The notes: a model not told the origin generated them from the letters alone. A DNA stretch of 36,418 nucleotides from Candidatus Magasanikiibacteriota bacterium (GCA_026396515.1 JAPLWQ010000003.1:357569-393986), one strand, 5' to 3'; counted from the first letter of the stretch, positions 5,867-36,418 are shown. A program made the numbers and translations.

Positions 5867-5956
5867 CGATAAAAAAAGCAAAACATAACACGGCTCATTT
5901 CATTTCTAAACCGTAAATCAAAGGCAAAAAACAGCCAAAGAATAAAGGAGGCCAAG

Positions 5957-6184
5957 ATGCCCGGGAAAATTATCATCATTCAAAAATGCCAAAGAGGCGC
6001 GCTTTTCAGTGGCCTGCCATATGCGCAGGTTGTCGTGAACGAAGCGTGCGTCGGCGAGCAAGAGAGTGGCCATTCAGTCTCGTACGGTGAGCTTGCCAGC
6101 TTCCTGGACAAGATCACCGGCATCACGGACGAGGAGAGGGAGCGCGCCAAGCAGGATCTGCGCACTTTCTTCAAGGTCGGGTGA
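5957..6184 (+). CDS. Small hypothetical protein (75 aa), first gene of GC-rich cassette A
   Basis: A strong SD (AAGGAGG, 5945-5951) lies 5 nt before the ATG. Codons are GC3-rich, unlike the backbone. I recognise no family. Confidence 0.65.
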   Translation: MPGKIIIIQKCQRGALFSGLPYAQVVVNEACVGEQESGHSVSYGELASFLDKITGITDEERERAKQDLRTFFKVG

Positions 6185-6188
6185 TGCC

Positions 6189-6626
6189 ATGACTGACATT
6201 TCAAACGAGGTCGTGATTGGTAAATTCCGCCTCCGAAACTGCGAGTGCGGAAAATGCAATGGCAACCCTCACTTCCACATCTCATACGACAATGAGCGCT
6301 TCGGCCCGTTCAGTGACGCCCTGCCGGCAATCATGCTGCTGATTCAATTCGCGCATGAGCGCAAGTTGGAAAACAAGTTCAGAGCGATCGGGCTCGGCCA
6401 GCTCATGCTGGACCGGCTGCCGATCGTGGAAGGCATGGGCATGCCCGCGGCTGAAGCAGAGATGAAAGTAACGGAAGCTTTTCCGGATTTGCAATGCATC
6501 ATCGCAAAAATCTTCGCCGACCTTAAAGAGGCGGAGAGCAACTACGCGCGCGAAGACTTCGGCGCCTTCTTCTCCGACAGAGTGGATAAGGACGGCGACG
6601 ACCTGCTACGCGCTGCCAGCGATTGA
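6189..6626 (+). CDS. Hypothetical protein (145 aa) with a CxCxxC..H.H cluster, second gene of cassette A
   Basis: The ATG at 6189 lies 4 nt after the upstream TGA. The sequence starts MTDISNEVVIGKFRLRNCECGKCNGNPHFHISYDNERFGPF... The ORF-track start at 6066 would overlap the upstream gene with an Arg/Ser-rich out-of-frame stretch. A terminator follows. Confidence 0.65.
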   Translation: MTDISNEVVIGKFRLRNCECGKCNGNPHFHISYDNERFGPFSDALPAIMLLIQFAHERKLENKFRAIGLGQLMLDRLPIVEGMGMPAAEAEMKVTEAFPDLQCIIAKIFADLKEAESNYAREDFGAFFSDRVDKDGDDLLRAASD

Positions 6627-6646
6627 ACGGTTTACGGAATCCCCAG

Positions 6647-34024: not shown

Positions 34025-34031
34025 AAGACAA
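34003..34031 (-). promoter_or_regulatory. Promoter TTGTCT-N17-TAGAAT with an extended TG, for the surface-glycan operon
   Basis: The minus strand reads TTGTCTtttggctgattttaTGtTAGAAT. The -35 box is at 34031-34026 and the -10 box at 34008-34003. ATG 33994 is 8 nt downstream of the -10 box, which implies a leaderless mRNA. Confidence 0.55.
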
Positions 34032-34067
34032 TAAAAAACACAAAACCCGCCGGTAAAGACGGGTTTT
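34032..34067 (-). terminator. Rho-independent terminator ending the GC-rich giant gene
   Basis: The minus strand reads AAAACCCG-(10-nt loop)-CGGGTTTT (34067-34042), then GTGTTTTTTAT. A second stable hairpin with a UUCG loop, GCCCCATC-ttcg-GATGGGGC, lies at 34140-34121. Confidence 0.7.
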
Positions 34068-34165
34068 GCGTATCAACTGAGATCATCACAGAGAGAGTTA
34101 TGATAATCTCATGGTGATTTGCCCCATCCGAAGATGGGGCAAGGAAAGAATGATTGAGGTGGGAA

Positions 34166-36418
34166 CTACGGAACGAACCCGATGAACAGGCCCTGGGTGA
34201 GGCAAATCCTCTCGACCGGGGTCAGCTCAAAGAAGTTCGACTGGTTGCTGAGACAGCACTCGGGAATGGGATCCTGTTCCGCACACGGCTCGCAGTGGTC
34301 AACGACCCAGTTGCATGAACCGCAATGCGGCATCGGGCTACCATCCACGTACTGCCAGGGCACGGGGCCCCAGTAGTTGCAGCCACCGGCGACATCGAAA
34401 TCGTCGCAGGTGCTGTTGATCGTGAGCGGGTTGCCGTCGACATCCAAATCCCAGCAGAAGAGGTACTGGCCCGTACCCGGAACCGGAATCGGTTCGCAGG
34501 TATGCGTATCCTTTCCACACGCTTCATCGGCCAAGCAGTCCTCGGCTTGGGAGCACTCCACGCAGATGCTGTCGAGGCAAACGGGCAGGGCCGGATTCGT
34601 GCAGTCGGTATCGATCACGCACTCGCCGGCGTCCGTGTCGGTATCGCCGTCCGAGTCAGAATCGCTGTCGGTATCGGTATCCGTATCACCGTCAGTGTCC
34701 GTGTCGGTATCGGTGTCGGTATCACCGTCAGTGTCCGCATCCGTGTCAGCGTCAGTGTCCGTGTCGGTATCGGTGTCCGTATCCGCGTCAGAGTCGGTAT
34801 CGGTATCCGTGTCCGTATCGGTGTCGCTGTCGGTGTCGGTATCACCATCGCTGTCCGTGTCCGTGTCCGTGTCGGTATCTGTATCGGTGTCGGTGTCGGT
34901 ATCCGTGTCCGTATCGCCGTCGGTGTCCGCGTCGGTGTCGGTGTCACCACCAGCATCCGGCACGCCACCATCGGGGACGGAACCGCAGTACCCTTCGGTA
35001 TCGCAGACGAGATCAGTGTCGCACTCCTCGAGCGGAGGCTCGGCACACGGCTGGCCGTCTTCGCCAACGCACGCACCCGCCGGAATATTCTGACACTCGT
35101 ACTCGCACACCACGCAAGTGGCGGACGAAGAGGTTGCCAGACAGACCGAGGAAGTATCGCACGACGCGATCGTGATCCAGCTGTTGTGGTAGATTGATCC
35201 GTCGCAGGCAGCGCCGGTACCGTCACAGTACTGCCGCGAGATGCGGCGCTGTCCATCGGCTCCGCAGAGCGCACCGTTGCAGCGGTAGTCGTACCACTGG
35301 CTGCAAAGGGTGAACTCGGCCTTGTAGGAGTCGGCCGGACAGACCGGCAGATCGCCGGTGCAGTATTCGTCGTTGTCGCACGGTCCGGCCGCGTCGCGGC
35401 AAACCGCCGTGTCCGGCAGATAGGAATCGGCCGGGCAGTCGGGGGCGGTGCCGGTGCAGAGCTCTGCCGGATCGCAATCGCCGGCGGAGATGCGGCACTC
35501 GAGCGTGGCCGGTTCGAACGTATCCGCGGGGCAGAACGAATTCACGCCGTCGCAGTACTCCGGCAAATCGCAGTCGCCCATATCGGTGCGGCAAACCTCG
35601 AACGGCAGCTTGACTGCGTCCTCGCACAAACCGAGCCCGTCGCAGTAGCTGTCCTCAGCACAGTCGTCCGCGGCCAAGCCGCAGGGCGTTGTGTCGGGTT
35701 CGAAATTGATCTCGCAGGTCCCAGCGCCGTCGCAGGTATCCGCGTGATCGCAGGTGGATTCGGAGGAATCACCGCACGGGGCACCGAGCAACTCGAAGTT
35801 GCCACCCAGATCACAGCACTCGCTGCCGGGGAAGCAATCCCCAGTATCGGTGTCTGTATCGGTGTCTGTATCGGTATCCGTGTCGGTATCCGTGTCGGTA
35901 TCCGTGTCGGTATCCGTGTCGGTATCCGTGTCCGAATCAGTATCCGTATCCGTATCGGTATCGGTGTCCGTGTCGGAATCCGTATCCGTGTCTGACCCAG
36001 TGTCAGTGTCGGTGTCCGTGTCGGTATCGGTATCACCATCGGTGTCCGTATCGGTATCGGTATCACCATCGGTGTCCGTATCGGTATCGGTGTCACCACC
36101 GGCATCAGGGCCACCGTCGCCAGCGTCCGGACCAGCATCCATGCCAGTATCCGTATCGCCGTCAGTGTCACTGTCGGTGTCCGTGTCCGTATCGGTGTCG
36201 GTATCACCATCGGTGTCCGTATCTGTGTCAGCGTCCGTGTCGGTATCGGTATCCGTGTCTGACCCAGTGTCAGTGTCGGTATCCGTGTCCGTATCGGTGT
36301 CGCTGTCGGTGTCGGTATCACCATCGGTGTCCGTATCCGTGTCAGCGTCCGTGTCGGTATCGGTATCCGTGTCTGACCCAGTGTCAGTGTCGGTATCCGT
36401 GTCCGTATCGGTGTCGCT
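34166..36418 (-). CDS. Large acidic (Thr-Asp)n repeat protein with five disintegrin-like Cys modules and further Cys-rich domains. The 5' end lies beyond the window.
   Basis: The frame stays open upstream of M at 36142 through to the window edge (only D, T, S and G codons). It includes CRTDMGDCDLPEYCDGVNSFCPADTF, CRISAGDCDPAELCTGTAPDCPADSY and CRDAAGPCDNDEYCTGDLPVCPADSY, which follow the ADAM/disintegrin pattern CR...G.CD..E.C.G....CP.D. There are two long DTDTD tracts. GC content is high and all other frames are repeat shadows. Confidence 0.8.
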   Translation of the reverse strand, partial: SDTDTDTDTDTDTGSDTDTDTDTDADTDTDTDGDTDTDSDTDTDTDTDTDTGSDTDTDTDTDADTDTDTDGDTDTDTDTDTDSDTDGDTDTGMDAGPDAGDGGPDAGGDTDTDTDTDGDTDTDTDTDGDTDTDTDTDTDTGSDTDTDSDTDTDTDTDTDTDSDTDTDTDTDTDTDTDTDTDTDTDTDTDTDTGDCFPGSECCDLGGNFELLGAPCGDSSESTCDHADTCDGAGTCEINFEPDTTPCGLAADDCAEDSYCDGLGLCEDAVKLPFEVCRTDMGDCDLPEYCDGVNSFCPADTFEPATLECRISAGDCDPAELCTGTAPDCPADSYLPDTAVCRDAAGPCDNDEYCTGDLPVCPADSYKAEFTLCSQWYDYRCNGALCGADGQRRISRQYCDGTGAACDGSIYHNSWITIASCDTSSVCLATSSSATCVVCEYECQNIPAGACVGEDGQPCAEPPLEECDTDLVCDTEGYCGSVPDGGVPDAGGDTDTDADTDGDTDTDTDTDTDTDTDTDTDTDSDGDTDTDSDTDTDTDTDTDSDADTDTDTDTDTDADTDADTDGDTDTDTDTDTDGDTDTDTDSDSDSDGDTDTDAGECVIDTDCTNPALPVCLDSICVECSQAEDCLADEACGKDTHTCEPIPVPGTGQYLFCWDLDVDGNPLTINSTCDDFDVAGGCNYWGPVPWQYVDGSPMPHCGSCNWVVDHCEPCAEQDPIPECCLSNQSNFFELTPVERICLTQGLFIGFVP
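34628..34946 (-). repeat. Hexanucleotide (GAYACN)n coding microsatellite-like tract encoding (Asp-Thr)n, internal tract
   Basis: The plus strand reads ...gtgtcggtatcggtgtcggtatcaccgtcagtgtcc... with strict 6-nt periodicity. Confidence 0.85.
35843..36418 (-). repeat. Hexanucleotide (GAYACN)n tract with a near-perfect 114-bp tandem duplication at 36200-36418
   Basis: 6-nt periodicity is present throughout. Positions 36200-36304 and 36314-36418 are identical apart from one mismatch (T at 36224 versus C at 36338) over 105 nt. Confidence 0.85.

Follow-up and report, generated by a model that had tools for sequence, protein, structure and literature searches.

The question raised by the last 36.4 kb of contig C5 of a Candidatus Magasanikiibacteriota genome (GCA_026396515.1, JAPLWQ010000003.1:357569-393986; 36,418 nucleotides (nt), referred to throughout as the window) is how three GC-rich blocks of genes with Shine-Dalgarno (SD) sites came to lie in an AT-richer backbone whose genes lack them. 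Block 1 (5957-6626) and block 2 (8132-9638) each hold two genes, and block 3 (34166-36418) is the 3′ part of a long gene that runs off the contig end. An earlier note on this DNA had read them as a recent acquisition from a high-GC donor with promoter capture. The evidence set out below points, as the probable explanation, to genuine horizontally acquired islands of different ages, which would have arrived by repeated transfer, ameliorated slowly and retained their SD sites. The genome is 966 kb in five contigs, has 44% GC and is rated 100% complete. It is that of a Magasanikbacteria-like member of the candidate phyla radiation (CPR, Patescibacteria); relatives of the window proteins carry the names Candidatus Magasanikbacteria or Magasanikiibacteriota, and the related genomes are all 0.6-1.3 Mb. 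It was compared within a genus set of six genomes, of which the congeners G001, G002, G004 and G005 are named below; G005 is the sister species and nearest congener.

The mosaic is clear in a 500-nt GC profile, with values of 0.54-0.56 over 6001-6750, 0.55-0.61 over 8001-9750 and 0.54-0.66 over 34001-36250, and about 0.38-0.50 elsewhere. Overall the blocks have 55-65% GC against 44% for the backbone, and the excess lies mainly at third codon positions, where the GC content (GC3) of the block genes is 0.71-0.83 compared with 0.46 for the window's 19 backbone genes and a genome median of 0.45. Against all open reading frames (ORFs) of the genome the robust z of block GC3 is 4.6-6.8, and the tetranucleotide correlation of the blocks with the genome is -0.09 to 0.32 (median 0.86), which corresponds to the 0.2-2.7th percentile. 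The blocks are therefore outside the genome's normal variance, the outcome that the earlier note had proposed to check, and its picture of three GC-rich blocks is borne out. Its spot counts are exact (40 of 60 G/C at 8221-8280 and 28 of 60 at 10321-10380), and codon counts agree with its preferences, with GAC, AAG, ATC, TTC, CTG and GGC favoured in block genes and GAT, AAA, ATT and TTT in the backbone.

These blocks are three among about 36 such islands genome-wide. Sliding windows detected 22 high-GC stretches, on all five contigs, and GC3 exceeds 0.60 in 63 of 895 ORFs and 0.65 in 43, which group into the 36 or so islands, so that the class makes up about 4-7% of ORFs. Several separate islands, instead of a single-junction chimera, are supported, as had been suggested. 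The products are accessory, and include lipoproteins with Thr-Asp/Ser-Asp (TD/SD) repeats, SPFH and flotillin proteins, a full-length vault-protein homologue, FHA, receiver and HATPase proteins, a metallo-beta-lactamase-fold protein and many orphans. When GC1 and GC2 were set against GC3 on the Muto-Osawa/Lawrence-Ochman regression lines, to see whether the blocks resemble ameliorating high-GC genes, only block 2 looked anomalous (GC2 of 0.40, GC3 of 0.83); at the level of the class GC1 and GC2 are raised as well as GC3, and the comparison gives an ambiguous picture.

Composition is coupled to the way in which genes appear to start translation. An SD was called genome-wide where a core of at least 4 nt lay 3-18 nt upstream of the start, and the rate was compared with that in a control window. 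Among the 791 low-GC3 ORFs of the backbone the rate was 6% (control 9%), and among the 43 ORFs with GC3 above 0.65 it was 51% (control 5%). Only before GC-rich ORFs did exact 5-mer SDs peak in spacing, at 5-7 nt upstream of the start, and the backbone rate was still 4-5% even when any in-frame start within the first 60 codons was allowed. G005 shows the matching split (6% in the backbone, 38% in the GC-rich class). Within the window, the SD strings reported earlier were recovered (AAAGGAGG before 5957, AGGAGG before 8132 and TAAGGAG before 8640), and the backbone starts, described as devoid of SDs, do have AU-rich leaders that lack them, in line with the genome-wide rates. A claim that these starts often lie 8-25 nt from a -10 box, as in leaderless transcripts, was not upheld: on start calls that are crude, the distances of upstream TATAAT-like sites are distributed evenly between 0 and 35 nt and peak nowhere.

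The 16S rRNA ends in GGATCACCTCCTTTCT in both this genome and G005, and the anti-SD CCUCC is intact. A genome-wide absence of SDs despite such an anti-SD is characteristic of SD-independent translation. An SD of at least 5 nt is present in both species before 65% of 17 GC-rich orthologue pairs, compared with 1% of 472 backbone pairs. As these sites lie in non-coding leaders at about 1.1 substitutions per four-fold site, their retention indicates purifying selection, and their conservation between the species suggests that the island SDs are probably used in translation. Backbone start regions are 67-73% A+U with a mean minimum free energy (MFE) of -4.8 kcal/mol, and the GC-rich genes have A/G-rich leaders and a mean start-region MFE of -8.5 kcal/mol. 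Native genes would thus start translation without an SD, relying on AU-rich and weakly folded start regions, and in the island genes, whose GC-rich, more structured starts could not use that mode, the SD would compensate and be kept under selection. The CCUCC still carried by the host 16S rRNA would serve the island SDs.

In Bacteroidia translation is SD-independent, the anti-SD is retained, and a few specially regulated genes such as rpsU are SD-led. The present genome is alike in its genome-wide lack of SDs, its AU-rich unstructured starts, its intact CCUCC at the 16S 3′ end and the small proportion of SD-led genes. It differs in that the SD-led minority is a GC-rich accessory class and not a ribosomal-protein gene. 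In the Bacteroidia-like regime the anti-SD is sequestered by bS21, bS18 and bS6; a profile search for bS21 gave a best match below threshold (18.5 bits, cut-off 27). Some Parcubacteria are reported to have lost the anti-SD (PMC9297842), and the genome also differs from the subgroup in which that paper detected it less often, as the lineage of the window keeps the motif.

Block 2 provides the clearest case of insertion. The distance between the stops of the convergent AMMECR1 gene and murF is 84 bp in G005 by direct reading (66 bp by ORF calls), 221 bp in G004 and 1,975 bp here (7896-9869), and at the empty site of G005 a single bidirectional terminator lies between the two stops. The earlier note's "recent" is right for this block: about 1.9 kb of DNA was inserted in this lineage specifically, at a site that is empty in two congeners, and would have arrived after the split from the nearest congener. 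None of the five congeners has the SPFH gene, and only two of 40 relatives do. A sigma-70-type promoter was predicted by consensus scan inside the inserted segment, on the plus strand (8030-8057; TTGACA-16-TATCAT with extended TG, 11 of 12 matches), and leaves a leader of about 75 nt. It is followed on the same strand by blk2a (8132-8629; GC3 0.83), an ORF for a 165-aa membrane protein with AGGAGG at 8117-8122, and by blk2b (8640-9638; GC3 0.83) with TAAGGAG at 8628-8634. Downstream, the terminator scan found a hairpin (9743-9767) and the bidirectional murF terminator (9827-9858). In sequence terms block 2 would be a self-contained unit of promoter, SD, two genes and terminator that entered between the AMMECR1 gene and murF.

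The product of blk2b is a 332-aa SPFH/Band 7 lipoprotein (PF01145, E = 9e-14, 52.4 bits against a Pfam gathering cut-off of 23.6) with a lipobox cysteine at residue 23 that is invariant in 27 relatives. It matches phrog_200 'lipoprotein' (E = 1e-34), is about 30% identical to phiKZ-like jumbo phage proteins and has metagenomic relatives at 44-62% identity, the best of which, at 62%, is on a 3-kb contig. A gene for 133-170 aa also precedes the SPFH gene in Magasanikbacteria and phage-like relatives. In another Magasanikbacteria genus the two-gene cassette (54% identity) is found at a different locus, a dnaG/sigma-70 region beside HepT/MNT, where it is again an island, of 57% GC against 38% for the surrounding backbone. 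Other relatives, 44-51% identical, are on contigs of 46-938 kb, two of which are IMG/VR viral contigs; the copies on phage-like contigs match the GC of their surroundings (43-58%), and one relative is in a 56% GC cellular contig. Upstream regions of the cassette copies in different genomes show no detectable homology with the block 2 promoter and leader, and so do not discriminate between promoter capture and transfer of the promoter along with the genes. The proposal of a high-GC bacterial donor is not supported for block 2, whose closest relatives lie in large phage-like contigs and in another CPR genome. Given these relatives and the phrog_200 match, its source would most plausibly be a large-phage gene pool, in which the SPFH lipoprotein family appears to circulate, or another CPR genome.

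The organisation resembles that of phage morons, which are autonomous promoter-gene-terminator units of deviant GC inserted between two genes. Block 2 likewise has its own sigma-70 promoter and SD, two genes and hairpins, deviates in GC, lies between two convergent genes and encodes an SPFH protein of a phage family, so that a promoter and terminator of its own do surround deviant-GC cargo. Unlike a phage moron it is in a bacterial chromosome with no prophage around it, its neighbours being the AMMECR1 gene, murF, a penicillin-binding protein (PBP) gene and other cell-wall genes. Three of the contigs that carry the SPFH cassette, the 938-kb TARA scaffold L027, the 460-kb L025 and the 191-kb L032, are packed with small co-directional genes without Pfam matches and also encode a CCA-adding enzyme, EF-Ts, PARP, protein kinase and DUF5131 proteins. 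They resemble huge phages or other giant mobile genomes, and 938 kb is exceptionally large for a phage.

Block 1 has a different history. It is led by an SD, AAAGGAGG (5944-5951, plus strand), that is kept before the orthologue in G005, G004 and G001, and encodes on the plus strand the 75-aa blk1a (5957-6184; GC3 0.71) and the 145-aa orphan blk1b (6189-6626; GC3 0.71), which starts 4 nt past the blk1a stop and has a CxCGxCxGNxH motif. A promoter-like site on the same strand, TTGACA ... TGTGATTAAAT (5814-5842), was read in the sequence outside the scoring of the consensus scan, and an arrangement TTGACA...TGATTAAAT is also upstream of the orthologous operon in G005. An intrinsic terminator with a 12-bp stem and T-run was predicted at 6645-6673 on the plus strand. 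No match to blk1a was found in Pfam, PHROGs or NCBIfam; it has orthologues at the syntenic site in G005 and G004 (33-53% identity), and G001 has a similarly sized ORF at the corresponding place. For blk1b, four of the six genus genomes are positive and none of the 94 other family genomes; full HMMER found only seven other relatives among 1.84 billion representative proteins, and a word-indexed global search returned the query itself only.

The block 1 of G005 is at the same site with 64% nucleotide identity, compared with 72-77% for the flanking genes; its GC content is 50-58%, and its promoter pattern and SD correspond to those of the window. In G004 and G001 block 1 is also present, with GC3 of 0.57-0.81, and is SD-led. 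As it occupies one site in four species of the genus, GC-rich and SD-led throughout, block 1 cannot be called recent as had been proposed. By its predicted genes it is a genus-specific orphan, which would already have been present in the common ancestor of at least four genus species.

Directly to the right of block 1 is a backbone landmark, the tRNA-Glu(CUC) gene (6723-6795, minus strand), which is inverted relative to G005; no duplication of the tRNA end was seen beside block 1. In the syntenic region of G005 (L018:6400-8700, corresponding to 6680-7350 of the window) the tRNA-Glu is followed by one inverted and one direct partial copy of its own 3′ end, and these enclose a GC-rich core of about 150 nt. 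Between the tRNA-Glu and the AMMECR1 gene in the window lies a further segment of about 370 nt and about 50% GC (6866-7235, minus strand) that ends in a strong minus-strand terminator (6869-6897) and folds better than shuffled sequence (z = -2.6). It has no Rfam match and no copy in G005, Rfam on 6600-7400 having found only the tRNA, and may represent either what is left of an inserted element or a small RNA that is as yet unclassified.

A much larger island has its edge at block 3. On the minus strand, the window holds the 3′ 750 codons (34166-36418) of a gene for a lipoprotein longer than 1,300 aa, identified as an ORF with Pfam PF00200 matches, and the gene ends in two hairpins (34035-34141), the second followed by a T-run. 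The last 186 nt of C5 are the reverse complement of the end of contig C4 at 99.5% identity, and the C4 part of the gene adds a signal peptide, a lipobox and the first Cys-rich module. The protein alternates acidic TD/SD repeats with Cys-rich disintegrin-like modules. Together with C4:80.5-93.8 kb, block 3 forms an island of about 15 kb that encodes an FHA protein, a coiled-coil beta-barrel-like protein and several Cys-rich lipoproteins with TD repeats. The 5′ part of the gene, in the last ~1.5 kb of C4, is in another frame than the rest, with the shift within a TD repeat; this could represent an assembly error in the repeat, a genuine frameshift or a phase-variable tract.

A syntenic island is present in G005 (D1:375.7-390.1 kb, 57-63% GC) and abuts the same Wzy-like gene; the block 3 gene is 60% identical over 45% of its length to D1:385814-388564, and the island boundary is kept. 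The Cys-rich modules are 33-53% identical, with E values as low as 1e-117, to proteins in records that bear the names Deltaproteobacteria and Chondromyces, and the best matches are several paralogues within one genome, uniformly of 69-70% GC. They thus match the PF00200 Cys-rich repeat surface proteins of Myxococcota ('Deltaproteobacteria'), from which block 3 differs in that its modules alternate with very long TD/SD acidic linkers, in its lipoprotein signal and in its location in a 44% GC CPR genome. The high-GC source that had been suggested is therefore directly supported for block 3, which is the best evidence for a high-GC bacterial donor. The word "recent" is not, as synteny of the block extends to the sister species, from which synonymous sites differ by about 1.1 substitutions each, and acquisition of the island, with its Myxococcota-type Cys-rich TD-repeat lipoproteins, would predate the split of the two species.

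These histories bear on whether one recent event, from one high-GC bacterial donor and with capture of host promoters, could have delivered all three blocks. The blocks are alike in GC-rich codon usage and SD sites, and the domain family found in block 3 suggests a Myxococcota-like source of high GC, as such an event would lead one to expect. Yet no two of them agree in age and distribution, or in relatives (phage-like contigs for block 2, Myxococcota-like genomes for block 3 and none for block 1). Blocks 1 and 3 are syntenic in congeners, and block 2 has its promoter inside the insertion and not in pre-existing backbone. A single event is on this evidence quite improbable. The wiring of the blocks to AT-rich promoters and terminators was seen as described, with the block 2 promoter and terminators at all three blocks predicted. 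What survives of the proposal of recent acquisition from a high-GC donor is a foreign-type origin, recency for block 2 and a high-GC donor for block 3; recency is lost for blocks 1 and 3.

As the genome is metagenome-assembled, and block 3 is at a contig end broken in a repeat, the blocks might also have been high-GC fragments of another organism spliced into CPR contigs by assembly or binning. The junctions, for which a check against misassembly had been advised, gave no sign of this. Three runs (three samples, two studies) yielded unitigs that are identical to the window over 7938-8154, 7751-7988 and 9522-9772 and so cross both edges of block 2, with a depth that is equally low (2-8x) within the block and beyond it. 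Genomes assembled independently show blocks 1 and 3 in the same contexts. At the edge of block 3 only one 199-nt unitig, over the stop codon, was found, and TD repeats attract reads from many organisms, so its assembly was judged from synteny instead. Every block has backbone or its syntenic neighbour on either side, and promoters, SDs and terminators are sensibly placed at the block edges. Assembly chimerism is effectively excluded, and a chimera of either kind is extremely improbable.

The genome-wide class shows that the islands turn over. A reciprocal-best orthologue in G005 was found for 34% of ORFs with GC3 of at least 0.65, compared with 68% of backbone ORFs, and the shared GC-rich orthologues are more diverged (58-63% amino-acid identity against 82% for the backbone). 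Clean empty sites in G005 were found for four islands, those of the vault-protein gene, a 236-aa ORF, a flotillin pair and block 2, and they include the highest GC3 values (0.82-0.89), with the exception of the 236-aa ORF (0.64); GC3 of the shared islands is about 0.65-0.81. Nine of 100 genomes of the family have a PRPP-synthetase-like GC-rich gene (C2:65462-66529; L084-L092; 44-85% identity), and a single genus contains two xenologue types of it (76-85% and 44% identity). In G002 it is split in two pieces and is apparently a pseudogene. Excess identity at four-fold sites is 0.26 for the shared GC-rich genes and 0.23 for the backbone (d about 1.1), and the equal divergence of the two sets indicates vertical descent of the shared islands since the species split. 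They have kept a GC content at four-fold sites (GC4) of 0.79/0.71, against 0.56/0.48 for the backbone. After arrival, island genes would shed their GC excess only slowly.

Several results weigh against an origin of the blocks by transfer. A rough two-state estimate indicates that neutral decay over d of about 1.1 halves the GC excess, and each lineage has accumulated about 0.55 substitutions per four-fold site, a distance at which the GC4 of the shared genes is barely reachable neutrally. With the excess halved an ancestral GC4 near 0.9-1.0 is needed, which is possible with a 69-70% GC donor and leaves little slack. Mean GC3 barely differs between shared and unshared GC-rich genes (0.74 and 0.76), and block 1 is GC-rich in four species, where selection may conceivably help to keep it so. 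No donor of block 2 closer than 62% amino-acid identity was found, block 1 has no outside relatives among the 94 family genomes and 1.84 billion representative proteins already mentioned, no integrase, transposase, direct repeats or att-like site was seen at the boundaries, and no RNA runs were listed for block 2.

Some of these points would be accounted for if the GC-rich genes were long-resident natives, in which GC-rich codons and SD leaders are kept by selection and not by import, for example through selection on mRNA structure or stability, or through a separate SD-dependent translation channel. Block 1 remains GC-rich and SD-led across species despite 33-53% protein identity, GC4 of the shared genes is at the upper limit of neutral decay, shared and unshared genes are nearly equal in GC3, and SD conservation shows that selection does act on the leaders. 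This explanation is nevertheless unlikely, as the sister species has clean empty sites for four islands, block 2 among them, three of those four (block 2, vault-protein and flotillin) having the highest GC3, and only 34% of the class is common to the closest species. Moreover, both block 2 and the PRPP-synthetase-like gene have a patchy distribution within the family that is incongruent with phylogeny, and the families of blocks 2 and 3 are mainly at home in phages and in 69-70% GC bacteria.

Horizontal acquisition at different times is thus the preferred explanation, and the islands can be compared with those of the Lawrence and Ochman model, in which compositional genomic islands arise from horizontal transfer and then ameliorate. 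They are alike in atypical GC, GC3 and oligonucleotides, in their patchy distribution, in having an empty site, in accessory content and in the higher GC3 of the youngest members. Composition is outside host variance for all three blocks; an intact empty site in relatives was found for block 2 only, blocks 1 and 3 being syntenic in congeners; and the closest relatives are outside the host lineage for block 3, in phage-like contigs and another CPR genome for block 2, and lacking for the orphan block 1. Unlike islands of that model, these have no integrase, tRNA-att duplication, insertion sequence (IS) element or direct repeats (the surroundings of blocks 1 and 2 contain neither flanking direct repeats nor a mobility gene), and apart from the 15-kb one they are tiny, at 0.7-2 kb with one or two genes. 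Their GC excess also persists over a synonymous divergence of about 1.1, and their mode of translation initiation differs from that of the host.

Foreign GC-rich islands are textbook material, and what is unusual here is the coupling of composition to initiation mode and its maintenance between species. Host genes have abandoned the SD mechanism, and genes that were probably imported, encoding GC3-rich accessory surface, membrane-scaffold and signalling proteins, have retained it over about one synonymous substitution per site, which offers a testable reason for the retention of an anti-SD in an SD-less CPR bacterium. GC3 and SD together may also be a simple sequence marker for the accessory or foreign gene pool of uncultured Patescibacteria, and hint at the gene sources, large phages and Myxococcota-like high-GC bacteria, of organisms with unknown hosts. 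Two cautions arise for practice: gene finders trained on the backbone will mis-start or miss island genes, and in binning the islands may be wrongly flagged as contamination.

A further and more speculative proposal, which at present seems doubtful, is that this lineage, and probably many others, runs two initiation channels. Core genes would start SD-free from AU-rich regions, and a renewed GC-rich accessory set, comprising surface lipoproteins, SPFH and flotillin scaffolds, the vault protein and signalling proteins, would use the SD/anti-SD interaction, with the anti-SD retained for that set and composition and SD selected together as a separate, possibly separately regulated, regime. If this were so, much of the class may derive from large phages and from the high-GC host of this epibiont, which would be Myxococcota-like, and the islands would record host identity.

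The remainder of the window consists of cell-envelope and central genes: murF, a class-B PBP gene, murB, a gene with a Glycos_transf_4 domain (PF00953, a family that includes MraY), and genes for a P-type ATPase, a transketolase and an O-antigen-ligase-like protein. To the left of block 1, 2511-5684 on the minus strand encodes a secreted protein of 1,057 aa in which a module of roughly 100 aa, marked by a conserved W...W...F pattern, is repeated in tandem about ten times. Among congeners the copy number and sequence of this protein are strongly variable, with 35-49% identity and different lengths. Elsewhere in the genome, the single 16S rRNA gene is divided between two contig ends (C1:47-1416 and C4:1-1013); each end matches the Rfam model as two abutting pieces with a break near model position 873, which may represent a small insertion or local divergence.

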